DNA from: Escherichia phage vB_EcoM_3HA11
Length of the DNA: 64,000 bases
Direction: 5' to 3' (one strand)
Sequence record: MN342150
The position numbers were made by a program, and so were the translations under genes. The notes below the pieces were generated by a model, which was not told where the DNA came from, did no database searches, and saw only the letters and a list, made by a program, of their open reading frames with translations. Positions 1,988 through 55,613 of this stretch are shown here, in pieces (the first letter of the stretch is position 1; each line of letters begins with the position of its first letter).

Positions 1988-2015
1988 TTCAATAATGGTG
2001 GTCATAGGGTATAAT
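1988..2015 (+). promoter_or_regulatory. promoter-like motif TTCAATAA-N14-TATAAT
   Basis: Upstream of the gene at 2050. Confidence 0.35.
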
Positions 2016-2049
2016 CTCTATGATCTGAATATTAACCCAGGAGCACATC

Positions 2050-2382
2050 ATGTCGGATGTTGCATTTATAGCTGACCTGATTCGGGCGGCACAACAGGTG
2101 TGCCAGTCTGGAGAAACCAGTCTCAAACTCACTACAGAGCAGACTCTAGAATTTTATAAGAATCGTCGGCATTGGGGTAAGAATGTCAAGATACATTGCG
2201 AACCAGGTGAATTGGTTCAGCTTGATCTTCCGTCTTTTCCATTGCCGGTACAGACCAACACTCAGGAATATTACAATGTTGAAGGCGTTGATATTATTCC
2301 TAAGTTTGGTTTTCACAGTATCGTTTACTTCTTCCTACGCCGTTTGGGAACCAGTATCGGCCCACTCGGTTCTCGTCATTAA
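2050..2382 (+). CDS. hypothetical protein (110 aa)
   Basis: ATG preceded by AGGAG RBS and a TATAAT box; no motif. Confidence 0.4.
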   Translation: MSDVAFIADLIRAAQQVCQSGETSLKLTTEQTLEFYKNRRHWGKNVKIHCEPGELVQLDLPSFPLPVQTNTQEYYNVEGVDIIPKFGFHSIVYFFLRRLGTSIGPLGSRH

Positions 2383-2394
2383 TGAGGATATATT

Positions 2395-2706
2395 ATGTCA
2401 GTTGAACAAATTGGTTTTTATCAACTCCCTTCTGATCCGAAACTGCGTCAAAAGATGATGCAGACATTGGAAAATTGCCGCGCCGCCCAGATCCGTATCA
2501 AGTCTGAACAGACATTTGTTACCGAAGCTCTGGCCGAATTGGCAAAAGAAACAGGCATCAAAGCCGTTGATCTGCGCAAAGTCGTTACTGACCGCGCTGG
2601 CGGAACTTACACCAAGACCATCGAGACCAGCGCCAAATACCAAGATCTCTATGAGTCTCTGTATCCTAATGCAGCGCCTGATCGCGCAGCCGATCCTCAG
2701 CCATAA
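2395..2706 (+). CDS. hypothetical protein (103 aa)
   Basis: ORF followed by a hairpin/T-run terminator at about 2716-2747. Confidence 0.45.
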   Translation: MSVEQIGFYQLPSDPKLRQKMMQTLENCRAAQIRIKSEQTFVTEALAELAKETGIKAVDLRKVVTDRAGGTYTKTIETSAKYQDLYESLYPNAAPDRAADPQP

Positions 2707-2715
2707 ATCCCCCAG

Positions 2716-2747
2716 AAAGCCCAACAAATTGTTGGGCTTTTTATTTG
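2716..2747 (+). terminator. rho-independent terminator
   Basis: Hairpin AAAGCCCAAC-aaatt-GTTGGGCTTT followed by TTATTTG. Confidence 0.5.
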
Positions 2748-2757
2748 AAACCTTTAC

Positions 2758-2781
2758 TTCAATAAAACATACGGCTATCAT
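2758..2781 (+). promoter_or_regulatory. promoter-like motif TTCAATAA-N10-TATCAT
   Basis: Upstream of the gene at 2825. Confidence 0.3.
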
Positions 2782-2824
2782 TTAACCTACTTTGAAAAGT
2801 TTCACTATATCATGAGAGGCAGAT

Positions 2825-4018
2825 ATGAAAGCCAAGACCTTCAGTATTCCTATCGACAACATTGGTCGTGTCAAGGAACGTCTGGCCAAACTTGAAAGAA
2901 CGGCCAAGCGCCTGAATCTCGAGTTCCCTCTTGTCGAATACAGCGAACCATACAAAACCCAGCATCGCGATTCTATCACTGGTGAAAAATTCTATCGGTG
3001 GTGGCAGGATTGTACACTCACTGGTGAAGGCATCGACCGCCCCGTTTCCTACGGCGGGTGGAGCATTATTGGACAATTCAATCACCAATATCCAAAAGTC
3101 ATCTTGAATAAATTAGCAGATGACATCCACCCTAATTTCATTCAAAGATTCGAAGCCGAAAACGTGTCTTGGTGTGAGCATTGTAATAAATCTGTGCGTC
3201 GTCATAACACATATGTTGTTCGTAACGAACAATCCGGCGCTCAAATGTTGGTCGGCAGTAGCTGTATGCACCATTACGTTCCTCATCAGAAATCGCTTGA
3301 TGCCGTGATGTCTTATTATATGTCGATACATGAAATGTTCTCACCTGATGAAGATGACCCTGAAGGCATCTATCGAGTGAACGAACCTGATTACGTTGAC
3401 ACTGAAGGTTATTTGCGGAATTGCTTTCAGGTTCTGCTGTCTGGTATGAGTATGAAGAGCGATGATTTTGGTCGAGTTCTTGGTCATATTTCTAGCGGGA
3501 CTCGTCCGGAGAAAGGTTCTGACATTGAGATATTCTATAACAAGGCTGTTAAAGCCCGTGAAGATGCTCAATCAGAAATGTACCATATGATGCTTTTCAT
3601 CGCCGCGTTGTCTGAGAACAATGATTTCAACGTTCGCCTGAAACGTATGTGTGAACCTGGATATCACCTCGTTAAGGACTCCACGACAGTTCGTTGGGGA
3701 GCAGCAAAGTATTATGATTATATCCACACCCCCCGCCAAATGCGTTCTGTATCAAATTGGGTGGGGGAAGTCGGTGAAATGTTAGAAGTGCAAGTCAAAT
3801 TCGAAGCAAGGATTTTCCTGCATTCATCTGATTATGGTGACACGTATCTGTATACTTTCAAAACCAAAGAAGGCAATACCATTACATGGAAGACTTCTTA
3901 TATGGAAACCGAATTCCTGGAAGGTGATATGATCATTCGTGGTCGCGTCAAAGAATTGACCGAATTCAAAGATGTTAAACAAACTCAGGTAACAAGGGCA
4001 AAACTGAGGAAATTATGA
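2825..4018 (+). CDS. hypothetical protein with Cys/His cluster (397 aa)
   Basis: Long ORF with CEHCNKS...SSCMHHY putative metal-binding cluster; occupies the position where T4 has primase gp61 but no TOPRIM or gp61-like N-terminal zinc ribbon recognised. Confidence 0.5.
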   Translation: MKAKTFSIPIDNIGRVKERLAKLERTAKRLNLEFPLVEYSEPYKTQHRDSITGEKFYRWWQDCTLTGEGIDRPVSYGGWSIIGQFNHQYPKVILNKLADDIHPNFIQRFEAENVSWCEHCNKSVRRHNTYVVRNEQSGAQMLVGSSCMHHYVPHQKSLDAVMSYYMSIHEMFSPDEDDPEGIYRVNEPDYVDTEGYLRNCFQVLLSGMSMKSDDFGRVLGHISSGTRPEKGSDIEIFYNKAVKAREDAQSEMYHMMLFIAALSENNDFNVRLKRMCEPGYHLVKDSTTVRWGAAKYYDYIHTPRQMRSVSNWVGEVGEMLEVQVKFEARIFLHSSDYGDTYLYTFKTKEGNTITWKTSYMETEFLEGDMIIRGRVKELTEFKDVKQTQVTRAKLRKL

Positions 4019-4130: not shown

Positions 4131-4340
4131 ATGGAATGTTCATGCGGAGGGCAAGGCACAAGTGCATACTTGCCATTTAACACCGTCAAGGAAGCCGAAG
4201 ACGCTGGATATGCCGTGGATAAGGCTCCCTGTGTAATTGCCACCAAGGATTGTCCGTGCTGTAAGAGGCACTCTCAGAACGTTTGGTATGCCCCAGAAGC
4301 AAAGGGCAAAATTAATTTATTGAATATGATGAGGAAGTAA
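4131..4340 (+). CDS. small Cys-rich protein (69 aa)
   Basis: AGAGGA RBS; CSCGG...CPCC cysteine pattern. Confidence 0.4.
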   Translation: MECSCGGQGTSAYLPFNTVKEAEDAGYAVDKAPCVIATKDCPCCKRHSQNVWYAPEAKGKINLLNMMRK

Positions 4341-4341
4341 T

Positions 4342-4683
4342 ATGACCACACTCGTAGAAACATTATTCCCAGGATGCACCCTTGGGCGCGGTGGTAGCGA
4401 AGCCAACGGGCTGGCAATTGACGCCGAACCCCAGAACTGCGTTGTTATCGACAAATTCCATGACAATCATTATGCTCTGAATGATCGTCGCGATCATTAT
4501 TTGGTTTCTGTGGGAGAATCTTTGGTTCACCTTCGAATCTGTTCTGCTTTACCAGGATATGGGTATGACGCATTTGCTTATATCCATGATGTTTCCAACG
4601 GCGCGTTGGGGAAAGAATCCCTGATTGAAAAATTCAAGAGTTGGAAGGAGTCCTTCACCTCTGTCACACCACCTAAGAAATAA
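4342..4683 (+). CDS. hypothetical protein (113 aa)
   Basis: ATG 1 nt after previous stop, GAGGAAG RBS. Confidence 0.45.
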   Translation: MTTLVETLFPGCTLGRGGSEANGLAIDAEPQNCVVIDKFHDNHYALNDRRDHYLVSVGESLVHLRICSALPGYGYDAFAYIHDVSNGALGKESLIEKFKSWKESFTSVTPPKK

Positions 4684-4698
4684 TTGAGGAATATATTA

Positions 4699-5307
4699 AT
4701 GTCACTGAAAACATTTTTAAACCGCCTGTTCAGCACTGTCGAGGCCAATTTAACTGCAGGTTTGGATAAACTCACAGATACCGAGAAGCGTTTGAATCTG
4801 GCTGCACGGAAACTATCTGATGAAATCCGGCGTTTAGAAGAAGCCCGTGTAACCAATGTCCACCATGGCGTTAAGATGAAGAAGACCGCTGATGAAAATC
4901 TGGCTGAAGCCATCAAGCGAGAAACCATTTTGAAAGATGCGATCGCTCGTGGAGTAACTCCTACCCGCGCCGAAGCTTTAATCATACTCCACCGCCGTCG
5001 TATTGGTGAAGCCTTGCTGGATAAAGTCAAAGAGATCGAATCTGGCAGCGTGAAATTGAATTCGGCGATTGTTGAATTGGGTGACAAACTGGACGCTGTT
5101 AAGTCTAATCTCGAATTGGTCCGAATTCAGAAAGAATCGAATGATCTTGGGTTAACTTTACCGGAAGACATCGATTACGCGGCTGGAATGATTAATGTCG
5201 ATGTTGATGCTATCCTTCGGGAAGCTGAAATCGCAGATTCCAATTATTCTACCAATAGCCCTTCAGCAACAGAAGCGGACAATTATCTGGCAAATTTATC
5301 AAAATAA
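4699..5307 (+). CDS. coiled-coil protein (about 203 aa)
   Basis: ORF-track frame from 4684 (TTG); first ATG at 4699 with GAGGA RBS; heptad-rich, charged sequence. Confidence 0.45.
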   Translation: MSLKTFLNRLFSTVEANLTAGLDKLTDTEKRLNLAARKLSDEIRRLEEARVTNVHHGVKMKKTADENLAEAIKRETILKDAIARGVTPTRAEALIILHRRRIGEALLDKVKEIESGSVKLNSAIVELGDKLDAVKSNLELVRIQKESNDLGLTLPEDIDYAAGMINVDVDAILREAEIADSNYSTNSPSATEADNYLANLSK

Positions 5308-5344
5308 TATAGAAGGGGCATGTGCCCCTTCATTTGGGGGATTT

Positions 5345-5917
5345 ATGGTCATTATTGACTCAACAGATATTTTGATTGCTGTTCTTAGTATGGTTGGGGT
5401 CTGTATTCTCGTTATGGGAATCAAAAAATCTTTGGGAAAACAAGTTGTTGAGGCCGTCTCCTCAGATTTACAACCAGAAAATACCACGAAAAATGTTAAA
5501 GACATAAAACTTATTCTGAGTAGCCGTGTGTCCAAAAGTTTGGTTCCGAGCATAGATGATTTCAACTTACACTACAAAGACCCAGACACTACTCCTGAAG
5601 AATATTTTCAATATTTCATGAAAGGTTTGGGTTGGCCGTTCATAGAATCGTGTGTATCAAAATCAAATTGTTTCTATTTGAAAATAGCATGTAAAGGTGA
5701 ATATCAGGCTGTATGGTTTTGGAATTACGACGACACTTACGATAAACAATTTTTGATATATCTTCACAGGTTGTTTAAAGAGTATATGAACAACGGCAAT
5801 GTCCCTGTTCACAAGGTAGAAACTGTAGAATCTATCGTGGATCGTGCTCGAACTCGTAATGGAACGAAACCAGATTATCTTTCCAAGTATGGATTTGTTT
5901 GGAAGGAGGACATATGA
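5345..5917 (+). CDS. membrane-anchored protein (about 190 aa)
   Basis: Internal ATG of ORF 5195..5917 located just after the terminator-like hairpin; N-terminal hydrophobic helix ILIAVLSMVGVCILVMGI. Confidence 0.45.
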   Translation: MVIIDSTDILIAVLSMVGVCILVMGIKKSLGKQVVEAVSSDLQPENTTKNVKDIKLILSSRVSKSLVPSIDDFNLHYKDPDTTPEEYFQYFMKGLGWPFIESCVSKSNCFYLKIACKGEYQAVWFWNYDDTYDKQFLIYLHRLFKEYMNNGNVPVHKVETVESIVDRARTRNGTKPDYLSKYGFVWKEDI

Positions 5918-6081
5918 AAGACATTTCATTTTATATTTGGTCTGCAATATTATTTTTCGGGATCTTGATTATTCTTTTTCAACCGTTTTGGGCCGAATGG
6001 ATCAATAATAGAAGAATGCGCAAATATGGAGTGGATGTTCTTCAGATTGTAGATAAGGCTAGAAAAAGACGCAGCAAATAA
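5914..6081 (+). CDS. small membrane protein (about 55 aa)
   Basis: ATGA start/stop overlap with preceding gene, AAGGAGGA RBS; one hydrophobic helix then basic tail. Confidence 0.35.
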   Translation: MKDISFYIWSAILFFGILIILFQPFWAEWINNRRMRKYGVDVLQIVDKARKRRSK

Positions 6082-6134
6082 ATCTATTGAAGTCTCTGGG
6101 GTTATAATAACAAGACGAATAACCCTGGAGACAC

Positions 6135-7575: not shown

Positions 7576-7596
7576 AAGGGGGGTATAACCCCCTTT
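7576..7596 (+). terminator. rho-independent terminator after the ligase gene
   Basis: Hairpin AAGGGGGG-tata-ACCCCCTT followed by T-rich TCAATAAAT. Confidence 0.45.
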
Positions 7597-7619
7597 CAAT
7601 AAATCTATGGCAGTATAAT
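7595..7619 (+). promoter_or_regulatory. promoter-like motif TTCAATAA-N11-TATAAT
   Basis: Upstream of the gene at 7648, just after the ligase terminator. Confidence 0.35.
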
Positions 7620-14885: not shown

Positions 14886-15407
14886 TTAATTCCTTACTTT
14901 GTCAGGATTAGATAATATTTGTTCGTATCCGACTTCTCCTTGATAGTCGAAAACATGCTGAAGAATCGCCATATCGTCTACCATCCGATAAACTTCAATT
15001 CCAGCGTTCATCAATTTTTTGATTCCATCCATAATACGATATGGCTCACGATAATATACTTTATCGATTTTACCGCTATCTATTATCTTTTGAGTGCAAT
15101 TAGGGCAAGGACTATGTGTCACAAACATAACCAACCCTGTGAAATCATCTGCATTTTCGGGGATACGCATTAGAGCATTTTCCTCCGCATGAACAACACA
15201 CGGGTTTGTAACAATTTGCCCGTGTTGCTCCATCTCACAAACATTCGGCATGCCAGGAGGCGTTCCGTTCCATCCGATAGCCACAGGCTGATCAGTTTCA
15301 GGGTTTACGATAACACAACCGACTTGCAGACGCCGAGCATAACTGGTTACACCATATGCTGCAGCTGATCGCATATGAGCAAACATCATACGTGGTTTGA
15401 TAGCCAT
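14886..15407 (-). CDS. cd: dCMP deaminase
   Basis: 173 aa; zinc-binding cytidine/dCMP deaminase motifs HAEENAL and PCPNC. Confidence 0.85.
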   Translation of the reverse strand: MAIKPRMMFAHMRSAAAYGVTSYARRLQVGCVIVNPETDQPVAIGWNGTPPGMPNVCEMEQHGQIVTNPCVVHAEENALMRIPENADDFTGLVMFVTHSPCPNCTQKIIDSGKIDKVYYREPYRIMDGIKKLMNAGIEVYRMVDDMAILQHVFDYQGEVGYEQILSNPDKVRN

Positions 15408-15739
15408 TATTTTATCAGAGCCTTTTCAAGTAAAAAGATCATGTCATCCTGGTCGGCGCGGCCAAAGATCTGACCGAGGGACACCATGGAATGAACCTCT
15501 TTGACAATCAGGTCTTTGCCTGTTACACCGCTGTTGTCCAATTCGAGAATTGTAGACATGCGCTCAACCATATGAGGTGGATGATTGATATAACGTTGAA
15601 GATACTTTTCACGCAACGCAATTTTTTCGATAAGATCTGACATTTCTGCATTCTCTTCTGAATACAGACGTTCTTTAGATTTCAGTTCTTCGAGGCGTTC
15701 GTACATTTCTTTTAATGAAATCATGTTTATCTCTCCCAA
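15407..15739 (-). CDS. hypothetical protein (110 aa)
   Basis: ATGA-type overlap with downstream gene; GGGAGAG RBS. Confidence 0.4.
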   Translation of the reverse strand: MGEINMISLKEMYERLEELKSKERLYSEENAEMSDLIEKIALREKYLQRYINHPPHMVERMSTILELDNSGVTGKDLIVKEVHSMVSLGQIFGRADQDDMIFLLEKALIK

Positions 15740-40034: not shown

Positions 40035-40036
40035 TT

Positions 40037-41265: not shown

Positions 41266-42048
41266 CTATCGGACATATTGATAATGAGAAACCAGGCGAT
41301 TCACCACTTCATCGAGGTTACGATTTAAGAAGTCAAAGTGGTTTTGGCCTTCTACATGCTTAATATAAAGCATATCCTCGCAATTCGAAAGATCCAGTTT
41401 TTCATAATTGCCCTGAGGGACGAAGATGACGAAGATGTTATTCAGGGCACACGGCTCAACATACTTCGGATTGTCGTCGATCAGGACATCGCCAGCAAGC
41501 AGATGCTTTTCATCCGTGCTCACGAACCCATTAATCAACGATTCAAAGTGATGGTATGTGAACTGACGCTTGCTGCGTTCGTGTTCCGGTTCGCATTTTG
41601 TAACTGCCACCATTTCCACTTGCTCAAACTTCTGAAGGAGAGCGGCCTTTAAATTCGTAAGGAATTCAACAGCCCCTGGCAGTGGTGACATTCTGGAATA
41701 CAGATCAGGCATACGCCACCAATCCATCGGATCACGTCCTGTTGGCGAATCCATCCACTGACCAGCAACGAATACACGGCGCGTTAACCAGGCCGGATGC
41801 GCGCGTTCACGCATGAGGATCGCCAGATCACCAGCGTGTGACATATAGCACTCTTTGGTGATTGGTTGAAATTCAGATGGGTAGTCGTGACATCCCATAT
41901 TTTCCGCAGCGGCTTTAGAATTAGAGATATTGAACCATTCAACCCACGGCGAAAGGGAATCAACCAGAGTCAAATCCACATCCACCAGAACGCGATATAA
42001 CCCGCCAATTTTAGAACATGCGTCATACAGACCAACGTGATTATTCAT
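41266..42048 (-). CDS. HAD-superfamily hydrolase/phosphatase-like protein
   Basis: Start moved to Met with GGAGA RBS (track ORF begins at 42108, which would overlap the upstream gene by 68 nt); HAD motif I VLVDVDLTL. Confidence 0.45.
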   Translation of the reverse strand: MNNHVGLYDACSKIGGLYRVLVDVDLTLVDSLSPWVEWFNISNSKAAAENMGCHDYPSEFQPITKECYMSHAGDLAILMRERAHPAWLTRRVFVAGQWMDSPTGRDPMDWWRMPDLYSRMSPLPGAVEFLTNLKAALLQKFEQVEMVAVTKCEPEHERSKRQFTYHHFESLINGFVSTDEKHLLAGDVLIDDNPKYVEPCALNNIFVIFVPQGNYEKLDLSNCEDMLYIKHVEGQNHFDFLNRNLDEVVNRLVSHYQYVR

Positions 42049-42385
42049 CAGATTTCTCCACTTGATCATAACCAGTTGCGGTGCATTGTTCTTCGGTGCA
42101 ATCAGCATACAGAACCACAGAAGATTCCTTCACGTAAGTGGTGCAGTGATAGGTTTCATCTTCCTGGATGGAATCATCATAATTGCAAACTGTTTGCAAC
42201 GGACCAGGAGTGGTGTTGTCCAAAGCTGCATGTGCCTTGATGGTGTCTTCCATCTTATTCACCGCTTGCTGATTGGTGAACGTCGGCGCATCGAGGTCAA
42301 CAGTAGACGCAACGTCCAGAAGGGTAGAGCATGCAGTGGTAGAGAAAGCCAGAGCACACACCAGAAGAATCTTATTGAGTTTCAT
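42041..42385 (-). CDS. secreted protein or lipoprotein (about 114 aa)
   Basis: Signal-peptide-like MKLNKILLVCALAFSTTAC with Cys after the hydrophobic core; TTCAATAA-N12-TATAAT motif upstream. Confidence 0.4.
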   Translation of the reverse strand: MKLNKILLVCALAFSTTACSTLLDVASTVDLDAPTFTNQQAVNKMEDTIKAHAALDNTTPGPLQTVCNYDDSIQEDETYHCTTYVKESSVVLYADCTEEQCTATGYDQVEKSDE

Positions 42386-42419
42386 AATAATACCTGTTGT
42401 CAAAGGGATAACAGGGGGA

Positions 42420-42445
42420 ATTATATCCCCCTTTGATTTATTGAA
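42420..42445 (-). promoter_or_regulatory. promoter-like motif TTCAATAA-N12-TATAAT (minus strand)
   Basis: Upstream of the secreted/lipoprotein gene. Confidence 0.35.
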
Positions 42446-45442: not shown

Positions 45443-45503
45443 TGTTTGTCTCCGGTTAACCGTGCCGTCAGCACGTCCCCGTAATTTAACCGAGGAACGT
45501 TCA

Positions 45504-46094
45504 ATGACCAAGGAGTTTAAAATGGCAATCCCCTTTGTGAGCATGATTCCAGGGGCGCTAAAGCAACTCTGGAATCTTGGGACTGATTTGGTGCAATATA
45601 AGCGGGAAATTGTTCAGGCTAAACACGATGTTAAACTGGAGGCAATAAAGTCTTCTTCAGAATGGGAACTTTCTAAGATTACCGAAGTCGGCGGATCTTG
45701 GAAAGATGAATTCTGGACAATCGTTTTGGCTGTTCCCGCTATCCTTGTTATGATCGCTCCGGTTGTGGAACTTCTAATGTTCCCCACCGAGTATCATAAA
45801 GGGGATTTCATCAAAGCAGTAATTGATGGTATGCAAGCCCTTGAAACAGCGCCTGATTGGTATACTGCTTCGCTATTGACAGCAATTAGTGCATCATTCG
45901 GTATCAAGGGGTACAACCATTACAAAAGCAATAGCCGGAAGGCGCAAGCTGTGGATGCTCTCAAACAGTTTGGGGTCAAAGTGGTTAACAAAGATCCCAC
46001 TGTTGTTACTCAGTCGGGTTCTCCCGATCTTGAGTCTGCTCCCCCAGCTGGGTCTACTGCGACCTCTGGTGCGTGGCCTGATCTGAAGAAATAA
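45504..46094 (+). CDS. membrane protein (about 196 aa)
   Basis: Divergent from DNA polymerase; GAGGA RBS (alternative ATG at 45522 with AAGGAG); central hydrophobic helix FWTIVLAVPAILVMIAPVV. Confidence 0.4.
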   Translation: MTKEFKMAIPFVSMIPGALKQLWNLGTDLVQYKREIVQAKHDVKLEAIKSSSEWELSKITEVGGSWKDEFWTIVLAVPAILVMIAPVVELLMFPTEYHKGDFIKAVIDGMQALETAPDWYTASLLTAISASFGIKGYNHYKSNSRKAQAVDALKQFGVKVVNKDPTVVTQSGSPDLESAPPAGSTATSGAWPDLKK

Positions 46095-46100
46095 GTTCAA

Positions 46101-46126
46101 GGGGAGGAAACTCCCCTTTCTTTTGG
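46101..46126 (+). terminator. rho-independent terminator
   Basis: Hairpin GGGGAG-gaaa-CTCCCC followed by TTTCTTTTGG. Confidence 0.5.
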
Positions 46127-46135
46127 TGTTAGGGA

Positions 46136-46348
46136 ATGAAAGTGGTAAACAAGAGATTGCTCGTCACCCAAGGCGGGGCGACGATAGTACGCGGACGGAT
46201 ATATGAACAAACCAAGCTGGGTGATCATAAGACTCGTCTGACGGTTAAAGCCCCCGACGGCGGTTGGCCAACAAAGGTGATTGTCCCAGACGGCCTCATA
46301 GAACGAGGGACGGCGACGTATAAGGGTGCAGAGTTCAAAATTTATTAA
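46136..46348 (+). CDS. hypothetical small protein (70 aa)
   Basis: ORF after a hairpin terminator. Confidence 0.35.
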   Translation: MKVVNKRLLVTQGGATIVRGRIYEQTKLGDHKTRLTVKAPDGGWPTKVIVPDGLIERGTATYKGAEFKIY

Positions 46349-46443
46349 AATATTTATTGAATAAAGTTTACTTCTTCAATAACTGGCGTATACTTCTAAT
46401 TGTAGTACGAACAAACAACAATCTGAAGAGAAGGAAATACATC

Positions 46444-47001
46444 ATGGCAATCGAAATTATCGCTCAATCAAAATCAGGCAAGACTGTAATGTACGGCACT
46501 GAAGAAGGCCGCTGCATCATCAACTACGGCACTATCACTGGCGAGTCTCCAGAGAAAGGTGGTCGCTATCTGGTTGAGTACGGATCACGCCTCCTGATGG
46601 TAAGCAAAGTCGATGGTCGTGAAATCATGATTCCTCGTAAAGAATACTTTGACTCACGCTCTGCCGCGATGACTTTCTTCCTCTTCCAGAAACGCCACGA
46701 ACTCTTCGTTGAAGCGAAAGACGCAGGTCTGGACGACGCGACGGCTGAGCTGATTGCCGAAGGTAAAATGACTCTCGAAGCTGCTCTGGGGGACATGGAT
46801 TGCGAAGCCGAAGCACATTATATTGAATATTCCGCATATCAGAACGAATGTGAAGATGATCCGGAAGACGACGGATTCGACCCTGACCTCCACGGCGGCG
46901 AAGACGATAACACCCCTTCCTTAGAAGTTCTGATGGCTGGCGGCCAGGCCGCTTGGGAATGGCAGAACGAGAAGAACGCCTGGCTGGATTCCCGTATCTA
47001 A
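46444..47001 (+). CDS. hypothetical protein with strongly acidic C-terminus (about 185 aa)
   Basis: ATG with AAGGAA RBS inside track ORF 46357..47001; C-terminal ECEDDPEDDGFDPDLHGGEDD. Confidence 0.45.
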   Translation: MAIEIIAQSKSGKTVMYGTEEGRCIINYGTITGESPEKGGRYLVEYGSRLLMVSKVDGREIMIPRKEYFDSRSAAMTFFLFQKRHELFVEAKDAGLDDATAELIAEGKMTLEAALGDMDCEAEAHYIEYSAYQNECEDDPEDDGFDPDLHGGEDDNTPSLEVLMAGGQAAWEWQNEKNAWLDSRI

Positions 47002-47008
47002 TTGACTG

Positions 47009-47030
47009 AAGCCCCTTCGGGGGCTTACTT
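47009..47030 (+). terminator. terminator-like hairpin
   Basis: AAGCCCC-ttcg-GGGGCTT followed by ACTTTG (weak T-run). Confidence 0.35.
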
Positions 47031-47049
47031 TGAACTGAAGGACTATATC

Positions 47050-47202
47050 ATGATTTTAATCTTATGGTTTGTATTCACATTTCTGGCCATGGCCGACATC
47101 GGCAAGTATCACGTTCTCCCAAGCGACCTGACCGTCCTGCTATACGGCATAGTTTCGTTTGTGCTGGGTTCCTTGCGCGCCCATATGAGGACTATATCAT
47201 GA
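47050..47202 (+). CDS. small membrane protein (about 50 aa)
   Basis: ATG with GAAGGA RBS inside ORF 47002..47202; hydrophobic MILILWFVFTFLAMA. Confidence 0.35.
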   Translation: MILILWFVFTFLAMADIGKYHVLPSDLTVLLYGIVSFVLGSLRAHMRTIS

Positions 47203-47396
47203 GCACCCCAAAAACTCCTGTCCGTATCGCTGTTGAGCCTCTGCTGGTTGATGCTGAGAATGCTGCTGAGCAGTACGCGAACAAAATCATCAAGAACATA
47301 ATGGACGATCTAGCATCCAACGGCTGGGACGTTGAGAAGTGCGCTCCGTGGCCATCTTCGGTTGGCGTCAAGTTTGGTGATCCAGTTTACAAATGA
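47199..47396 (+). CDS. hypothetical small protein (about 65 aa)
   Basis: ATGA overlap with previous gene; GAGGA RBS; leader sequence duplicated from the preceding gene. Confidence 0.4.
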   Translation: MSTPKTPVRIAVEPLLVDAENAAEQYANKIIKNIMDDLASNGWDVEKCAPWPSSVGVKFGDPVYK

Positions 47397-47489
47397 AAGA
47401 CTCATACTGCATCGCGGCGTTTCGACGTGCTTCCTTGACAAACAGAGCATGGCGTTCAGGATCAGCTTTGACAATATCCGGCTTCCCAG

Positions 47490-47744
47490 GTGTGTAAGAA
47501 GGATTCACTGCCTGGGTCAAAGAACGGTAGAGTGCGTGTTTTGATTTCATTCGTTGGTAATCTGGAAAACAAAATTGGTGGTCACAGCGCGGCTGTACTG
47601 AATGGTTCCCATGTATGGGGGTATTCAATCCTGACCGTGACTACACCAGAGGGGATCGAGCGCTGGAAGACTCAGACGATTATCAATGTGTCCAAGCTGG
47701 GCAAACTCTTTAACCAATATCCAACCAGGAAGGTGAAGGAGTAA
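47490..47744 (+). CDS. hypothetical small protein (84 aa)
   Basis: Plus-strand ORF ending before the hairpin at about 47757-47777; preferred over the overlapping minus ORF 47368..47628. Confidence 0.3.
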   Translation: MCKKDSLPGSKNGRVRVLISFVGNLENKIGGHSAAVLNGSHVWGYSILTVTTPEGIERWKTQTIINVSKLGKLFNQYPTRKVKE

Positions 47745-47756
47745 AATTAGAACAAC

Positions 47757-47777
47757 AAAGGGGCATTAAGCCCCTTT
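47757..47777. terminator. bidirectional terminator between convergent genes
   Basis: Hairpin AAAGGGGC-attaa-GCCCCTTT with T-rich flanks on both strands. Confidence 0.45.
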
Positions 47778-47779
47778 GT

Positions 47780-48238
47780 TTATTTCCCATCCCAAAAGTC
47801 GTCTTCATCGTCTACTTCATCAAACGCAGAATCCAATTCTTCGTCAGAGTACTCTGGAAGGCGACCATTCTGTTTCAGATATTCAATCTCGTCATCTTCC
47901 AATTGAAGATCCGTTGCTATAAACAGTGCTCCGGTCTCTTCATCATGTTCAATGCTATAAGACGTATATTCAGAACCCTGAACTGTAATGATGATAGATG
48001 TTGGATCTTCTGGATCCACGTGAGCTTCAAACGGGATACCGTCAATTGGGGCGTCTTCTAAGAACGTTGCAAGGGCTACGGCAGCGCGGACAACATCCGT
48101 GCCCTGTACCGATGCATAAATTTCTTCTGCACCCGTTTCCCCGCGCTCAAAGAATTCAATCGTAGTTCCGTCTTGAACCCCAGTCCAGATAGGCATATCT
48201 GCTGGTGTATCGGCTTCAAATAATTTTGAAATTGGCAT
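47780..48238 (-). CDS. highly acidic protein (152 aa), candidate DNA mimic
   Basis: About a quarter of residues are Asp/Glu with few Lys/Arg; C-terminal DEVDDEDDFWDG; last gene of the operon before a terminator. Confidence 0.45.
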   Translation of the reverse strand: MPISKLFEADTPADMPIWTGVQDGTTIEFFERGETGAEEIYASVQGTDVVRAAVALATFLEDAPIDGIPFEAHVDPEDPTSIIITVQGSEYTSYSIEHDEETGALFIATDLQLEDDEIEYLKQNGRLPEYSDEELDSAFDEVDDEDDFWDGK

Positions 48239-48273
48239 GTTCGTTTCCTCTATGGATAAACCTTATGGGATAT

Positions 48274-48723
48274 TTAGGCTTCTCTCTTCGCCAGCCCTGG
48301 TTTAAACACGACCATTTCTTCAACGTTATTAGCGCTCATAGAGGCTATGGAATCGAATCCTTTATTGATAAGTTCCTTCACATTATCGTGAATCTTACCA
48401 GGTTCTATCCCCAACTCACGCATTTTGTTTTCCCAAACAGAAACGTTATTAGAATCTATCACCAGAGTCTTCTTGGCCTTAACACGAAATGCCATGACAA
48501 CAGGTTCACCAGATTGACGATAGCGAACGGCGTTTTCCGCGTAGATCTGCGCTTTTTCTGGATCCCCTGTCAGGTAAAATCCAGCACCCATCGTACCTGA
48601 GTCAGTCTGGCCAAATTTTTCAAAGTCAAAGACGTCGAATTCAACATTCGACCCATGATATAAAACAATATCCGTAAAATCGGGCAATGTTGATTCACGA
48701 TAGAATTCTAGGAAGGTTTTCAT
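48274..48723 (-). CDS. hypothetical protein (149 aa) with HGS motif (speculative ADP-ribosyltransferase-fold)
   Basis: LYHGSN near the N-terminus, then aromatic-rich GAGFYLTGD and a later Glu; pattern-level resemblance only. Confidence 0.4.
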   Translation of the reverse strand: MKTFLEFYRESTLPDFTDIVLYHGSNVEFDVFDFEKFGQTDSGTMGAGFYLTGDPEKAQIYAENAVRYRQSGEPVVMAFRVKAKKTLVIDSNNVSVWENKMRELGIEPGKIHDNVKELINKGFDSIASMSANNVEEMVVFKPGLAKREA

Positions 48724-48762
48724 AGATACCCCACACTTGCTGTATGGGGTATTTAGGAGGGA

Positions 48763-50037
48763 TCAATCAGGGGTAAACTCGTTCACAGGAACTTGTTCCG
48801 GCATAGACAATTCGGGGCATGCTGCCTTCATTGGCTCAATATACGGCTTGCTACCAACAATCCAGAACAGAGCGTTTTCGTTGAGCAGTTCTGGCTTATG
48901 CTGTTGGATCCAGGTCATGACCTTGCCTTCATAGCGAGGATGCAGCTCAATATCACCCCACTGATAATCCATCAGGTCATTATAGCGAACCCAATTCGTT
49001 GTATGCAAATCCCAATGGTGTACTGCAAAGCGTGGGAGCGTTATCTCCGACTCTCCCTTCTCGCGGATACCCATCAGGAGGCCAGCCAGCGAAACGCTCT
49101 TAGAGGCATGCTGAAGATCCTTCTTGCCGTACACATAATCTGGGTTGTCGTGATAGCAACGAGTGAAATCCGTTATGTGCGGAAGATTAGCTTGTTTTCC
49201 AATAATACGCAAACGGCTTTCAATAAAGTCCAGACGGTTGGGACCAATCCCGATCAGATATACATTTTTCAGATTCGGTTTCGGGTGCATTGCCAGCCCT
49301 GTCAAAATGCTGGTACAAGAATTACATGAACCAGCAGGAATGATCAGATCTGTGATATGGTCCGGAATGTTAGCAACCTGCTCGCCGCCCAGCATATGAA
49401 ATCCTGCAATCCTCTCCGGAGAATGCAACGTATGATCCAGAGTGATCCCATACTCTAGATAATATGCTTTTGGATTCTGCTGCTCAATCAATTTCTTGCA
49501 GCGCGGCTGGATAGTGCTGTTGTAACCCGAACCGACAAAGTTGAATTCGCTGCCGAACCAGGCGCTCATCTTCACCATGTCATGGTTCATACACGTGGTG
49601 GGTTTGGTAGCGCCCAGGACTGTAGTTGTCTTGCCGCCGAAATGCCGTGAGACTGCTGTCGCCATAGGGGACTGCGGACTACCAACGACAGTACCATGGA
49701 TAAGGTCTGGGGAGCCTCCGGCCTTTAAATGCTCAACCATCAGCCAGATGGCCTGACGCAATTTACTACCATTGATCCCCTGCTTACCATTCATATAACA
49801 AGACAGCGGCGCGAAGTAATCTTCACGTTTGAACCAGACCTGCTGATTAGTTTCAGGGTTGGCAACGAGTTCGCATGGGGTGTGCTTATAGAGATAGTCT
49901 TCCCAATGGATATGGTCTCTGTTAAGGGAAAGAACATTAAAGATAGTTTTGTATGGACCTTTCCCAATATGATGCATCGGGATATATGGGGAAAGCGGTT
50001 GGCTGGGAAAAGATTTTGGATCAATTGGTTCGTTCAT
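48763..50037 (-). CDS. PLP-dependent enzyme, fold type II (ACC deaminase / D-cysteine desulfhydrase-like)
   Basis: 424 aa; FKREDYF...NGSKLRQAIWL resembles the KRED...GGNKxRK PLP-lysine region of that family. Confidence 0.45.
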   Translation of the reverse strand: MNEPIDPKSFPSQPLSPYIPMHHIGKGPYKTIFNVLSLNRDHIHWEDYLYKHTPCELVANPETNQQVWFKREDYFAPLSCYMNGKQGINGSKLRQAIWLMVEHLKAGGSPDLIHGTVVGSPQSPMATAVSRHFGGKTTTVLGATKPTTCMNHDMVKMSAWFGSEFNFVGSGYNSTIQPRCKKLIEQQNPKAYYLEYGITLDHTLHSPERIAGFHMLGGEQVANIPDHITDLIIPAGSCNSCTSILTGLAMHPKPNLKNVYLIGIGPNRLDFIESRLRIIGKQANLPHITDFTRCYHDNPDYVYGKKDLQHASKSVSLAGLLMGIREKGESEITLPRFAVHHWDLHTTNWVRYNDLMDYQWGDIELHPRYEGKVMTWIQQHKPELLNENALFWIVGSKPYIEPMKAACPELSMPEQVPVNEFTPD

Positions 50038-50106: not shown

Positions 50107-50790
50107 TTACTTGGTCAGAAAATCCATCAGGCGGCGGAAAAACGATTTGTGTGAGTCACTCACCTTCGGAGGATACTGAAGGATGGGTGGAAGTTCAGGA
50201 TCCACACCAACAGGCGCTCCCTGATCGTTCAGAACACGACTGGCTGGTGGAGTCGGTGGAGTCGGCTTCAAAGATTTGATCGCCTGATTCAGATCGGAAT
50301 TGTCCACAACACTCGCTTCTTCAGCCACAGAAACACACGGCTTGATTAAAACAGATTTCTTAGACTGCTCATACTGATGAGCGATATCTAGATATTTCTT
50401 GCGCTCAGCGTAGAAATCGACGTTCTTAACTTTACGGCGGCGAGCAGTAGAACTCTCTTCACCATAAAAGTCATATCCATTTTTGAACATCCAATTCACT
50501 GCTTGCTCAAATGAATTGAATACCATATACAGGCCGCGCCGCCCGTTGACCATATCGTCTTCGCTGGAATAACCGATGAACACCGCTTGGCCTTTCTTGT
50601 TCAGATCAAATGGGGTGCAGACGCCCGTATCATCTAGGGAACGCGGTGCGAGGTGCCCGTCTCTGTAAATGTAAGCCGGATACAAGAACTCATTCAGAGT
50701 GCGCTTGTTGCCTTTATATGTGTACAGACGAGCAAATGGAGGCAGATCACAAACAACATCATTGTAATCCCAAATTGTTACATTGCGCAT
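50107..50790 (-). CDS. hypothetical protein (227 aa)
   Basis: ORF; Pro-rich C-terminal segment TPPTPPAS. Confidence 0.4.
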   Translation of the reverse strand: MRNVTIWDYNDVVCDLPPFARLYTYKGNKRTLNEFLYPAYIYRDGHLAPRSLDDTGVCTPFDLNKKGQAVFIGYSSEDDMVNGRRGLYMVFNSFEQAVNWMFKNGYDFYGEESSTARRRKVKNVDFYAERKKYLDIAHQYEQSKKSVLIKPCVSVAEEASVVDNSDLNQAIKSLKPTPPTPPASRVLNDQGAPVGVDPELPPILQYPPKVSDSHKSFFRRLMDFLTK

Positions 50791-50861
50791 GGTGTTTCCT
50801 CAAATCAATGAAGGGGTTTATAAACGGTTAAATTTTAAACCCCTTATTGTCATTGAACAAA

Positions 50862-51835: not shown

Positions 51836-51917
51836 CTTAACTTCCTTAACCCCAGATTGTTATGAAGTCGGCATGCACACCTTCTTCATCTTCAGGAAGT
51901 CACACTCATTATTCTGA

Positions 51918-52003
51918 TTGCTTCAACTGGATTCGAACCAGTGACCTCAGGCACCTTGTTCTCTCGAAACTTTCCTGCGCTCTACCACTCGAGCTATGAA
52001 GCA
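51918..52003 (-). tRNA. tRNA-like element, 86 nt, anticodon arm non-canonical
   Basis: Perfect acceptor stem (TGCTTCA/TGAAGCA), canonical D-arm and T-arm (ACTGG-TTCGAAT-CCAGT), but 35 nt between D- and T-arms with no standard 5-bp/7-nt anticodon stem-loop. Confidence 0.35.
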
Positions 52004-52006
52004 ATT

Positions 52007-52095
52007 TGGCGGAAGGTGAAGGATTCGAACCTTCGGGGGCTAAAAGCCCCACTCGATTAGCAGTCGAGTCCCTTAAACCTCTCGGGCAACCTTCC
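52007..52095 (-). tRNA. tRNA-Ser (anticodon GCU)
   Basis: Hand-folded cloverleaf: acceptor GGAAGGT/ACCTTCC, anticodon stem CTCGA/TCGAG with loop CTGCTAA, long variable arm, T-loop TTCGAAT, encoded CCA. Confidence 0.7.
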
Positions 52096-52099
52096 AATT

Positions 52100-52183
52100 T
52101 GGAGCGGGAGAACAGGATTCGAACCTGTCCAGTGATCGTCGCCGATGATCAGTCGGCTACTGGCCAACCCCTATGGCTCCCGC
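52100..52183 (-). tRNA. tRNA-like element (anticodon loop CTGATCA, possible GAU), non-canonical junctions
   Basis: Acceptor GCGGGAG/CTCCCGC and T-arm present, but one extra nucleotide between T-stem and acceptor, no clean D-stem, pyrimidine at position 37. Confidence 0.3.
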
Positions 52184-52544
52184 GAAATTAGGACGGGCTT
52201 CACACCCGATTGAGCATTTCATCTGCCCGTTTGAAGGGCGACCAGTGCCTTCTGGTCTGTACACAGCTGGCTGCAACGCTTACCGTGTTTGGTCTACCGC
52301 TACGTGCTGGGCCACGCTCGAGGACATCGGCCATCCTTCCTCAGCTAATCCACGCAGCGGCAGATTTGTATCAGAGTGTCCGGTGTAGCTTTCCGTGAGG
52401 TGCGCACTACTGTAGCCTCTACACTCTGAATTTGGTGGGCGTTACTATCGTCGTCTTCGGATTCCGTTCTGCTATTGGACAGAGGCTTGGAGCTTGTCGG
52501 TCGCATACTTCGTGCCTATTCACTTTCGTTCACACCCGTAATTC

Positions 52545-52619
52545 TGGCGGTGCCTCAAGGACTCGAACCTTGCTATCACGGATTAACAGTCCGCCGCTTC
52601 ACCATTTAGCTAAAGCACC
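52545..52619 (-). tRNA. tRNA-Asn (anticodon GUU)
   Basis: 75 nt; acceptor GGTGCTT/AGGCACC, anticodon stem GCGGA/TCCGT with loop CTGTTAA, T-arm CAAGG-TTCGAGT-CCTTG, encoded CCA. Confidence 0.65.
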
Positions 52620-52627
52620 TGAATATT

Positions 52628-52703
52628 TGGCATGCCCTCCAGGACTCGAACCTGGGTTGTACGGTTTTGGAGACCGACCTCATAGCCGCTAGATCAAGGG
52701 CAC
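52628..52703 (-). tRNA. tRNA-Trp (anticodon CCA), weak D-stem
   Basis: 76 nt; acceptor GTGCCCT/AGGGCAT, anticodon loop CTCCAAA, T-arm CCAGG-TTCGAGT-CCTGG, encoded CCA. Confidence 0.5.
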
Positions 52704-52717
52704 ACACCTTACAACGA

Positions 52718-52742
52718 ACTATACTGTATAAAGGTTATTGAA
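52718..52742 (-). promoter_or_regulatory. promoter-like motif TTCAATAA-N11-TATAGT (minus strand) upstream of tRNA-Trp
   Basis: The -10-like hexamer ends about 15 nt before the mature tRNA-Trp 5' end. Confidence 0.35.
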
Positions 52743-52771
52743 ACAAACCTTTATTTTATTCAACCATAATA

Positions 52772-52848
52772 TGGTGATCCTGGTTGGGTTTGAACCAACG
52801 ACCAATGAATTATGAGTTCACTGCTCTAACCGACTGAGCTACAGGACC
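52772..52848 (-). tRNA. tRNA-Met (anticodon CAU; initiator/elongator/Ile-lysidine not distinguished)
   Basis: 77 nt canonical cloverleaf: acceptor GGTCCTG/CAGGATC, D-arm GCTC-AGTCGGTTA-GAGC, anticodon stem GTGAA/TTCAT with loop CTCATAA, T-loop TTCAAAC, CCA. Confidence 0.75.
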
Positions 52849-53252
52849 TTTTGATTCTTCAAATTTCTCAACACGTGTGGGTTGGATTCTAACATCTTCT
52901 TCATGTTGTCCTCCTTACTTAACAATTGTAAATTCCACAGTGCGCAATTATATTTGTTCTCATCAATATGGTCTATTTCAAACCCTTCTGGAACTGGGCC
53001 ATTAAACGCCACCCAGACAAACCAGTGTAGATATTTCCTGAGATATACACCCAGATATTCCACTTTTATTTGCAAATAGCCAGTCCCGTTGTCCACTGCA
53101 GTCAAATACTTCTCTGGCAGTTTCTGTTCATATTCCCTAAACTGGTTCTTACGGAGTATAGTCAATTCAGGCTTCTTGACCTTTCCGTAGTTGCTGACAA
53201 ATACGCAGATTCCGAGTTTATCCAAACACAACTCTTTCCAAATCTCTTCCAT
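52839..53252 (-). CDS. HNH homing endonuclease
   Basis: 137 aa; HNH motif EIDHIDENKYNCALWNLQLL; adjacent to the tRNA array; 3' end overlaps tRNA-Met by about 10 nt. Confidence 0.6.
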   Translation of the reverse strand: MEEIWKELCLDKLGICVFVSNYGKVKKPELTILRKNQFREYEQKLPEKYLTAVDNGTGYLQIKVEYLGVYLRKYLHWFVWVAFNGPVPEGFEIDHIDENKYNCALWNLQLLSKEDNMKKMLESNPHVLRNLKNQKVL

Positions 53253-53259
53253 GCCAACT

Positions 53260-55600
53260 ATTCCCCGTTATTTGTGATGTGTCCAACCAAGGTCTCTCAA
53301 CCCTTTATCCCGTTTGTGCATGATCAGTTCATGCATGCCTGTTTGTGCGCCTCACGGCAACGCGCTTCTGTGGGTCTTTGGCTTGCACCGTAGCCTCACC
53401 ACAGGCGTTTATTTTTCCAGGGCTTTCCACTTGCAAGTCTTGACCATATAGGGATACGGGCTTGCAAGATCGGGTTGGACACAACTTTGATGGCTCTAGG
53501 ACTAAAGATCCCGCGTCACCCATAGACTTGGTTTATAAAATCTAGAGCCATCAAAGTTGCAACCAATGTCGCAACTCGCACTTCAGCGTCTTCGTCTCGC
53601 TTCAGCACTTGTCCTCTACGCTCGGACCAAACGAGGCTGGCCGACAGAAACATGACACCACTCATCACTAGAGCGAGGATGTGGTTGATAGCCACGATGT
53701 TACATCTCTGTCGCAGAGTGATCACACTTGTCAGGATGATCACTGTTTTGCGAACTTGAAAATACTGCGCCTGTCTCGGGTTTCCCCTTAGTTCGGCCTC
53801 TCATTGTTCGTCTAGTCAGGGAGCTACCCTTGATGACCAGCTTATTTTGAGATCTTCGCCAGCACCCACTAGTGTCTAGAATATGTAGGTGTCGAGGTCC
53901 GCAAGGCATTGCCCTATTTCATACAACGCTCTCTCAAGTACGCAAATCGAAGTTCTCTGGGCTTAACAGGTTCGACCCAACATGTTGTATATCGCCTAAC
54001 TTACTCATGGGACGGCCACTTCTGTGTACAGACCTTGAGGGTTAAAAGATATACCCAAAGAACTTCGATTTGCGTTGTGGGGCAAACCCCCACACGGCTA
54101 CTTCTTTGACAGGGATTGCTAGCCCTGGGGATTCCACTGTTTAAGGCTTTATCCCATAACGCCCGAGGCGCGTTTTAACTTATTGAAGCTTGCATAACTG
54201 CAAACTGATGCGCTGTGAGACACATCTTTGAGGGCACTCAGTGTACAACAGGCTCCGATATTTCATAGGGCATTACTGCCTCGGATTTAAGTTGCCTTTC
54301 TCCTGAAACTCCATACAGTCTCGCGTCTGACGCGGAATGCCCTCAAAGATATGGAGCCGTTTTAGGGAGTCGAACCCAAATGCTTGGCCAGCGCTGACCT
54401 TACATCCCATCTGACTTAGGCAACCCACCTCTGCTTACTCAGGAGCTTATCCCCTTTGGACAGTCAGATATAACGGCTTTGGGATTGGAGGAAGGACTCG
54501 AACCTTCTCATGTACGCTCCTGATTTCTCAGAAGTAGTCTGCTCCCATCGACCTATTAAGTACACGCTCCGCTCATTGTTCGGCGGGAGCTTATTAATCA
54601 CACCCTCCCGCCTATTGTTAGTGCGCCGAATTTTGTTATGAGGAATCGGAAGACCTCACTGGTGTATGGCTATTAAGCTACTGCCAGGAACGTGTTATCA
54701 TTAGCGATTATTTTTGTGGTCAGTTTCTAAAAACCCGCAAAGTCACGCACAACGAAAACGAAAACCTGTTTGAGTCCTAAACCTACCTGTCTTGGTCTCA
54801 CATCGCTATGAGTGGCCAGGACTCAAACAGCTTGCCGTTCAGTGAGTTAACTATACTTTGTAACCCGTTATTGATAAAACCTTTTATTTTTGTTGACGAG
54901 GGTGTGGAATCGAACCACACTTCTGAGCGCTGCCCCGTGTCACCAATGCACCACCTCACCATCGATTTGCCGGAACTTACGCATCCGGCCTCGTCCTGTC
55001 GGTGTTCTTCTGAATCCGGGAAGATCAGCAGGAACTATGAATCAAGTTAATTCAACCAACAGGAATCCTCGTGTTGCCCTTTGACGCAACATTATGAACC
55101 CTCTATGAAGACTCATAATGTTGTCGGCGTGATGGAGATTAGCGCCCCCGACCTCCCCTTATATGTTGGTGTCGACTTGCCAACAGGGTGCTCTCTGATT
55201 CTGAGCTAATCACGCTACAACAGGGAGTTTCGTTCTCCGACGGTCAAGTGCGTCCACTGACACCAGCGAGGTGGATATTATGCCTCTATTCACACAAGCC
55301 CCAGAGACTAGGGGTTCACTGTTTTCGGTTTCAAGCCTACTCACACTGTGCTGTTTCCCTCATGTTTGATACTTTACTGCAAGCCAGCCAATTTGAAAAA
55401 TCCTCTCCCCTTTGAATTACACTGCCCACAGCAGTGCGGACGAACCTTCATTCAAAACCGGATGCGCCGAAATGGGCGACTGTGTACCGGACTGATCAGG
55501 TCGACCCAGGAGAGAGCAGGTAATCCCGATCAGGAGGATGAGGAGTAACATCATGTAAAACATAGTGTTCCCTCCCTTCCATGCAACTAACTTTACCGCA
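53260..55600. other. ORF-poor structured region with tRNA-like fragments and long-range inverted repeats (candidate ncRNA, intron or pseudo-tRNA remnants)
   Basis: No credible ORF of 60 aa or more; T-arm-like motifs at about 54366, 54496 and 54910 with acceptor-like pairings at non-tRNA spacing; inverted repeats such as 53483-53500/53551-53568, 53943-53957/54060-54074 and 54225-54234/54341-54350. Confidence 0.4.
55414..55560 (-). CDS. small hydrophobic peptide (about 48 aa; below ORF-track cutoff)
   Basis: ATG preceded by strong GGAAGGGAGGGA RBS; MFYMMLLLILLIGITC signal-like N-terminus; coordinates hand-counted. Confidence 0.3.
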
Positions 55601-55613
55601 TTTATTTATTGAA
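55590..55613 (-). promoter_or_regulatory. promoter-like motif TTCAATAA-N10-TAAAGT (minus strand, weak -10)
   Basis: Upstream of the small peptide gene 55414..55560. Confidence 0.25.

Follow-up and report, generated by a model that had tools for sequence, protein, structure and literature searches.

Escherichia phage vB_EcoM_3HA11 (sequence record MN342150) was analysed over a stretch of 64,000 nucleotides (the window), in which the 8-nucleotide box TTCAATAA is repeatedly followed, 10–14 nt later, by a TATAAT-like hexamer. The question raised by these pairs was what they do and what reads the box. Taken as a whole, they are probably family-conserved pre-late promoters that carry an already published motif, with a box read by a phage factor and with many copies fused to a terminator. 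On the separate parts of this explanation, sequence comparison makes it very likely that the sites are promoters, and plausible that one class of them (class A) depends on a phage factor.

Positions 30000–50000 of the window were 99.2% identical to Salmonella phage Sajous1 and matched 284 phage records, nearly all of them Salmonella, Klebsiella, Escherichia, Dickeya, Serratia and Shigella phages; positions 1–25000 were about 95% identical to the same phage set. The RefSeq relative Escherichia phage ECML-4 belongs to Ackermannviridae, Cvivirinae, Kuttervirus, and on these matches the window is that of a Kuttervirus (Ackermannviridae) phage. The gene map was made by placing the ECML-4 annotation on the window with tblastn and filling the gaps with open reading frames (ORFs), which gave 91.5% genic and 8.5% intergenic DNA. 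Whole-genome statistics were taken from the complete ECML-4 genome (157,308 bp, 203 features), and other genera were represented by Klebsiella phage 0507-KN2-1 (Taipeivirus), Dickeya phage LIMEstone1 (Limestonevirus, another subfamily) and IMG/VR relatives. An Rfam scan of the window returned transfer RNAs (tRNAs) only.

Distribution and conservation of the motif

The window contained 21 copies of TTCAATAA, against 4.5 ± 2.2 in dinucleotide-preserving shuffles, and none of 100 shuffles reached 21. Thirteen of the 21 copies were intergenic, though intergenic DNA makes up only 8.5% of the window (binomial p = 1e-9), and 10 of these 13 faced the next gene, 31–135 nt away as counted from the box. 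The eight genic copies look like chance occurrences. The pattern TTCAATN{12,16}TAWWWT occurred 8 times in the window, with 1.4 expected. When a composite site was defined as an exact TTCAAT followed after 12–16 nt by a TAnnnT hexamer with at most one mismatch to TATAAT, all 10 composite sites in the window were intergenic and gene-forward; the composite site at 45500, which overlaps the downstream start codon, is probably due to chance. The ECML-4 genome had 21 composite sites, 16 of them intergenic-forward (7/7 when both hexamers were exact), and its intergenic composite sites numbered 16 forward against 1 reverse. The preliminary description of this DNA had proposed promoters in front of genes, and the enrichment in intergenic, gene-forward DNA bears it out.

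The distance from the end of the box to the −10 was most often 12 nt, and it was 10–14 nt for 11 of 25 intergenic boxes. Counted from TTCAAT, the modal spacer was 14 nt, and the class A spacers were 12–15 nt long except for 16 nt at site 1988. Most sites had their −10 at 14–72 nt from the start codon or tRNA; at site 7595 it was 28 or 118 nt away, depending on the start codon chosen. A −35-like hexamer 16–18 bp from the −10, as in canonical sigma-70 promoters, was lacking at class A sites and was present only at 2753–2781 and 46367–46394. The positions just upstream of TTCAAT, where a −35 hexamer at N17 would lie, had no conserved bases at class A sites, and no TG extended −10 was seen there. 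A generic sigma-70 scan gave no enrichment (37 found, 33 ± 6 in shuffles), and pattern scans of the window and ECML-4 showed TTGACA-N16-18 promoters and T4 MotA-box promoters to be essentially absent.

Class A was drawn from a listing of all ECML-4 upstream regions and consists of TTCAAT(AA) with the box ending 10–14 nt (mode 12) from the −10. In ECML-4 such sites stand before nrdA, the td cluster, the helicase-loader operon, rIIA, the post-polymerase cluster, the HU-type gene with the helicase, tRNAs and small unknown genes. The genes downstream of TTCAAT-type sites are those of replication and nucleotide metabolism, tRNA genes and small unknown genes, and structural genes have the motif CTAAATA instead. 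Five of the seven CTAAATA copies in the window lay directly upstream of structural genes. CTAAATA(cCcc), the other motif published for the family, was located at 13630 (−), 48271 (−), 48750 (−), 56507 (+) and 60369 (+), immediately before structural or late genes, namely the baseplate tail tube cap gene, two small genes, gp6 and a tail protein gene, and none of these five genes had a TTCAAT box.

The motifs were reportedly first described by Adriaenssens et al. (2012, Arch Virol) in the proposal of the genus Viunalikevirus. The EspM4VN genome paper (PMC7283392) gives TTCAAT[N14]TATAAT as a regulatory motif of this group of phages. Since TTCAATAA followed by 12 nt equals TTCAAT followed by 14 nt, the motif of the window is the same as the published one. 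The motif itself is therefore already known, the window adds no new element, and the promoter class proposed earlier as distinct is not a newly seen one. A literature search with the 8-mer alone returned only unrelated primer sequences, and the motif does not appear in a related ISME J paper.

The sites were conserved across genera. In 0507-KN2-1, three orthologous intergenic regions kept the box, spacing and −10: those that follow the genes for primase-helicase and DNA polymerase, and the one before hyp73, which is the orthologue of window gene 34652–34981. The rIIA promoter there had an exact TTCAAT-N15-TATCAT where the window has TTCTAT. In LIMEstone1 the site that follows gp41 and the one in front of the tk-td cluster were retained, and the TTCATT variant was kept before ORF008, which corresponds in position to the window gene annotated as ‘histone family DNA-binding’. 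Among IMG/VR relatives of three downstream proteins, the 5' spacer part and the adjoining coding sequence varied, and the box and −10 were invariant except at one locus, which reads TTCAATAC. The box and −10 of site 1988 were kept in 13 distinct Ackermannviridae sequences. Site 42420 was kept in 19 loci of several genera, again with a variable 5' spacer part, and site 35054 had an invariant box, spacing and −10 and a nearly invariant stem in 19 loci whose downstream proteins were 32–99% identical. An exact-pattern scan of IMG/VR for TTCAATAA-N12-TATAAT gave single chance matches among the matches listed and was uninformative on taxonomic spread. In sequence and spacing, in intergenic gene-forward placement and in conservation across genera, the sites agree with the Ackermannviridae motif.

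All eight sites named in the preliminary description were present in the sequence, on both strands, and their coordinates were right except for the fifth, which is shifted by 1 nt (38009–38034, minus strand). The exact 18-nt block common to two copies was also found (CGTTCTTCAATAAAGGGG), with its second copy off by 1 nt (35067–35084 and 38022–38039, minus strand). The box had been called invariant, which does not hold: conserved variants read TTCATT at 26798–26823 and TTCTAT at 33432–33458, upstream of rIIA. To these additions come two good sites absent from the earlier list, at 56228–56253 and 50832–50857.

The putative class A promoter at 1988–2015 (+) is made up of TTCAATAA, 14 nt and TATAAT (2010–2015), and lies 34 nt upstream of gene 2050–2382. 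Another, at 42413–42445 (−), comes right after the DNA polymerase stop codon, with the box at 42438–42445 and the −10 TATAAT at 42420–42425, upstream of gene 42041–42385. The predicted promoter at 52718–52742 (−), TTCAATAA-N11-TATAGT, is 14 nt upstream of the tRNA-Trp 5' end (52703); at the same place the tRNA cassette of ECML-4 is a different one, which carries its own TTCAATAA-N12-TATGAT. The site at 55590–55613 (−), TTCAATAA-N10-TAAAGT, has the weakest −10 of the set and precedes the small ORF 55417–55563. The candidate promoter at 56228–56253 (−), TTCAATAA-N12-TATAAT, stands 37 nt upstream of gene 55621–56190 and is found in ECML-4 too.

Hairpins at and before the sites

The bases around the class A −10 were G-rich upstream, and C-rich and then T-rich downstream. 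Of 14 exact-box sites in ECML-4, 6 had the −10 in a hairpin loop, compared with 13% of other −10-like hexamers (p = 0.007). Two sites on the minus strand of the window had full terminator-like hairpins. At 35036–35084 (box 35072–35079, −10 TATTAT 35054–35059, upstream of gene 34652–34981), a 16-bp stem with a T-run spans 35036–35073 (folding free energy, dG, −22.5; z −5.7). At 37993–38039 (box 38027–38034, −10 TATTAT 38009–38014, upstream of gene 37718–37972), a hairpin with a T-run spans 37993–38028 (dG −26.5, z −5.4). Both have an A-rich 5' flank whose AATAAA pairs with the T-run, and both would be class A promoters placed within a terminator hairpin. TTCAAT-N14-TAAAAT at 50832–50857 (−), upstream of gene 50107–50790, also lies in a strong hairpin (dG −18.6, z −5.0). 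The hairpin of site 1988 (about 2000–2025) has TATAAT in its loop and no T-run (dG −14, z −2.2). At 42420 the TATAAT is in the loop of a GGGGGA/TCCCCC hairpin with a shorter stem, which has the features of a terminator in part.

At three further sites an ordinary terminator ends in a T-run that leads into the box, the abutting terminators being at 7577, 26824 and 33460. The terminator hairpin of the ligase gene at 7577–7619 (+) is GGGGGG-TATAA-CCCCC, followed by TTCAATAA (7595–7602), 11 nt and TATAAT (7614–7619); its z-score was −2.1 and the arrangement is the same in ECML-4. At 26798–26823 (−), the variant TTCATT-N14-TATAAT continues the T-run of the upstream terminator (z −2.5) and precedes the ‘histone family DNA-binding’ gene 26250–26753. 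At 33432–33479 (−), upstream of rIIA, a terminator hairpin (33460–33479, z −4.4) has a T-run that passes into TTCTAT, N15 and TATCAT. Fold z-scores gave no significant hairpin at 2758, 46375, 52718, 55590 and 56228. The suggestion that promoter and terminator are interleaved thus holds for roughly half of the sites, by a −10 in the loop or a T-run abutting the box, and does not hold for the hairpin-free ones.

The stem at site 1988 differed between phages: the window has TCATAG:CTATGA, LIMEstone1 has TCGTAG:CTACGA and Taipeivirus-like loci have ATCATGA:TCATGAT. These substitutions are compensatory, so the pairing has been kept. The simplest reading of the fusion is that the hairpins would insulate units from upstream transcription.

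Reading of the box and rival explanations

In the proposed mechanism, host sigma-70 RNA polymerase would use the near-consensus −10 (TATAAT or TATTAT), and TTCAATAA would lie at about −32 to −25, where a −35 is unreadable at the normal 17-bp spacing, so that the box would stand in for the −35. Its reader would most likely be phage-encoded, a functional analogue and not a homologue of T4 MotA/AsiA. The main reason for assuming a dedicated factor is that TTCAAT was kept at the 14-nt spacing in every genus, with no drift to TTGACA at 17 nt, which argues against reading by sigma region 4. In this scheme class A sites would be promoters of delayed-early or middle type, serving genes of replication and nucleotide metabolism, tRNA genes and small accessory genes, and the class B promoters described below (2753–2781 and 46367–46394 in the window) would fire first. 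The fused forms are of two kinds, one with the −10 inside the hairpin loop and one with a hairpin and T-run immediately ahead of the box. Transcription coming from upstream would be halted by folding of the hairpin, whereas an RNA begun about 7 nt past the −10 would have no 5' arm and would be extended.

The model for such a site is the T4 middle promoter, in which a MotA box 12 ± 1 bp from a stringent sigma-70 −10 replaces the −35; the box, (a/t)(a/t)(a/t)TGCTTtA, is centred at −30, and MotA with AsiA activates by sigma appropriation (PMC2988021). In T4, transcription from such promoters begins 1–2 min after infection and depends on early phage proteins. The sites of the window had the likeness in geometry that had been noticed earlier: the −10 is near-perfect, the box ends about 12 bp before it, and a −35 at 16–18 bp is lacking. 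Their box differs from the MotA box, as had also been seen (TTCAATAA against TGCTT(t/c)A). The pattern TGCTTYA-N11-13-TAnnnT occurred once in the window and three times in ECML-4, and never at the promoter sites found here. Only the T4 MotA box is known to work from the place that the box has here.

The class B promoters are sigma-70-like and read TTTAC(T/A)-N16/17-TATAaT. ECML-4 had 8 intergenic class B sites, all before hypothetical genes. T4 early promoters have a similar −35 region, GTTTAC. Kutter et al. also gave the number of sigma-70-like promoters as 8, and the same CBA120 paper (2011) stated that early promoters were not identifiable by informatics and that ViI-like phages are without MotA, AsiA, Alt and ModA (PMC3184105). 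The predicted class B promoter at 2753–2781 (+) consists of TTTACT, 17 nt and TATCAT, with TTCAATAA (2758–2765) overlapping the −35 and spacer, and lies upstream of the 397-amino-acid gene 2825–4018. Site 2758, earlier taken for the box-plus-minus-10 type, is therefore a class B site with the box in the spacer, as is the unlisted 46375. The Taipeivirus orthologue of this promoter reads TTTACT-N16-TATATT, and the LIMEstone1 record labels its orthologue ‘putative middle promoter’. The second, within 46354–46394 (+), has TTTACT-N16-TATACT (46367–46394) upstream of gene 46444–47001, and a perfect 8-bp inverted repeat, TTATTGAA (46354–46361) and TTCAATAA (46375–46382), flanks its −35. The repeat around the −35 recurs at ECML-4 376–404 and in Taipeivirus (L009, upstream of hyp85), and it looks like an operator.

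The protein of gene 2825–4018 (+) is conserved, with 397 amino acids, Cys/His clusters and a match to phrog_2319, and is present in all three genera examined. Between the class A and class B promoters lies 2395–2706 (+), a 103-amino-acid protein that is a ‘transcriptional regulator’ by phrog_639 and the ECML-4 annotation; its resemblance to T4 DsbA was seen by eye only.

Several results weigh against the proposed mechanism. A phmmer --max search of 1775 six-frame ECML-4 ORFs with T4 MotA and AsiA (checked against PDB entries) found no homologue (best E = 2.4), so that the MotA/AsiA-like activator looked for elsewhere in the genome was not seen; this negative applies at the level of sequence, the structure level covers one modelled protein, and remote structural homologues are possible. 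Pfam searches of 10 and PHROGs searches of 10 candidate proteins (15 different proteins) gave no informative candidate for the reader, the only usable matches being the HU-type protein ECML-4 gp126 and the phrog_639 match of 2395–2706. The basic 189-amino-acid protein 55621–56190 (−) was tried as a MotA analogue, as it seemed by eye to have a winged-helix and a beta domain, and was rejected for want of a MotA-like fold. Its AlphaFold model was confident (predicted local distance difference test, pLDDT, 89.6) and had no significant PDB match, the weak top hits being the PD-(D/E)XK restriction enzymes SfiI, BglI and PvuII; the protein occurs only in Ackermannviridae (31 clusters). Transcript 5'-end mapping for any Ackermannviridae phage was not found in the searchable literature. 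At 35054 and 38009 every base of the box, the −10 and the stem was invariant across the loci examined, or nearly so in the stem of 35054, which makes promoter and terminator constraint inseparable at these two sites.

The placement of the box weighs on the same side. In 5 of the 8 ECML-4 class B promoters TTCAATAA was in the spacer, only 5–10 nt from the −10, and the LIMEstone1 orthologue of 2753–2781 (TTTACT-N17-TATTAT) had its box shifted upstream of the −35. Inverted boxes were found at 15741–15777 (−), where TTATTGAA, 11 nt and TATACT in a hairpin loop (z −2.6) precede gene 15407–15724, and at 6084–6108 (+), 11 nt upstream of the −10 of the DNA ligase gene. At both, an inverted (C/T)TATTGAAG 11 nt before TATAAT/TATACT was kept in Kuttervirus, Taipeivirus and Limestonevirus. 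Boxes at other registers or inverted agree better with a protein-binding site of free position than with an element fixed at −30. A box working generally in either orientation was considered and rejected, as ECML-4 had one exact inverted 8-mer at promoter distance, together with the two conserved near-matches, and the arrangement is thus rare.

These variable registers, with the inverted repeat around the −35, are what would be expected if TTCAATAA were an operator-like site of a phage or host regulator that switches promoters off or on by position, as in early shut-off. As a replacement for the fixed −30 element this is improbable, since most intergenic boxes were at a tight 10–14 nt from the −10 and in a single orientation, and the candidate searches gave no regulator; it is also compatible with a phage-read promoter box and not exclusive of it. 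Another account has plain host sigma-70 promoters that depend on a near-perfect −10 and on no phage factor. TTCAAT would be a degenerate −35-like element at a bad spacing, or an A/T-rich one, that helps polymerase to bind, and expression would be early rather than middle. It draws on the excellent −10 hexamers, the searches that found no activator, the T, T and A that TTCAAT has in common with TTGACA, the 16-nt spacer of site 1988 and the ability of some T4 middle promoters with a perfect −10 to work with RNA polymerase alone (PMC2988021). We nevertheless judge it rather unlikely. Sigma-70 promoters have spacers of 16–18 nt. The usual spacer here is 13–14 nt, which puts TTCAAT 3 bp too near the −10, and reading by region 4 should favour TTGACA at 17 bp, whereas TTCAAT(AA) was kept across genera. 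A TG extended −10 was not seen, and the genome also has class B as a distinct set, in which the TTTAC −35 is at a proper spacing.

A last account takes the elements for intrinsic terminators only: TTCAATAAA would be the A-rich sequence on the 5' side of a bidirectional terminator, and any TATAAT-like loop would be incidental. The strong hairpins at 35054, 38009 and 50832, the first two with a T-run that pairs with AATAAA, and the succession of G-rich, C-rich and T-rich bases around the hexamer are in its favour, yet it is very improbable. There was no significant hairpin at 2758, 52718, 55590 and 56228, the hairpin of 1988 has no T-run, and at 7595, 26798 and 33432 the terminator comes first, with the box and −10 after it. 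Termination requires neither a TATAAT loop nor a fixed TTCAAT, and the two were nonetheless kept across genera; the sites are strictly oriented to a start codon 14–72 nt away, site 7595 excepted.

Family-conserved promoters with a phage-read box are thus preferred. A bolder form of this explanation, in which we have limited confidence, would have TTCAATAA as the site of an Ackermannviridae-specific factor unrelated in sequence to MotA/AsiA, a case of independently evolved sigma appropriation. The same factor might shut off the early TTTAC promoters when the box is in the spacer or around the −35, and the terminator fusion might make each unit depend on its own promoter.

Neighbouring inserts and likeness to known systems

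The tRNA region at 51900–55600 is unlike that of ECML-4: the tRNA-Trp cassette has its own box and −10, and ECML-4 carries another insert, likewise with a copy. This suggests that the inserts are mobile cassettes that bring their own promoter. ARAGORN found an 84-nt tRNA-Ile (gat) at 52100–52183 (−), which is below the threshold of the Rfam tRNA model and may be the degenerate tRNA mentioned for CBA120. An ORF at 52839–53252 (−) encodes 137 amino acids with an HNH-like motif, recognised by eye. Upstream of the ligase gene, at 4131–6081, the ORFs 4131–4340, 4684–5307 / 5195–5917 and 5914–6081 are absent from ECML-4, possibly as the result of a homing-endonuclease-type insertion.

ViI-like phages are widely isolated as biocontrol candidates and reporter phages. 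The promoter–terminator fusion may help annotation and the design of expression cassettes in engineered Ackermannviridae phages.

Compared with known systems, the sites are like T4 middle promoters in having an upstream box in the stead of the −35, at the same distance from the −10, before genes for replication, nucleotide metabolism and tRNAs, and in coexisting with early sigma-70-like and gp55-type late promoters. They are unlike them in the unrelated box, the lack of a MotA/AsiA match in ECML-4, the lack of a TG extended −10 and the occurrence of the box at other registers. The analogy holds for the build of the site and fails as family membership. With intrinsic terminators they share the GC-rich stem, T-run and A-rich 5' flank at 35036–35073 and 37993–38028, but differ in the conserved −10 in the loop or upper stem, the fixed TTCAAT in the 5' flank and the several hairpin-free copies. 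The closest match is the published motif, which has the same sequence, spacing, phage family and intergenic place, and whose partner late motif CTAAATAcCcc is also in the window. Beyond it, the comparison adds conserved box variants, class B promoters with the box in the spacer, terminator fusion and covariation at one site.

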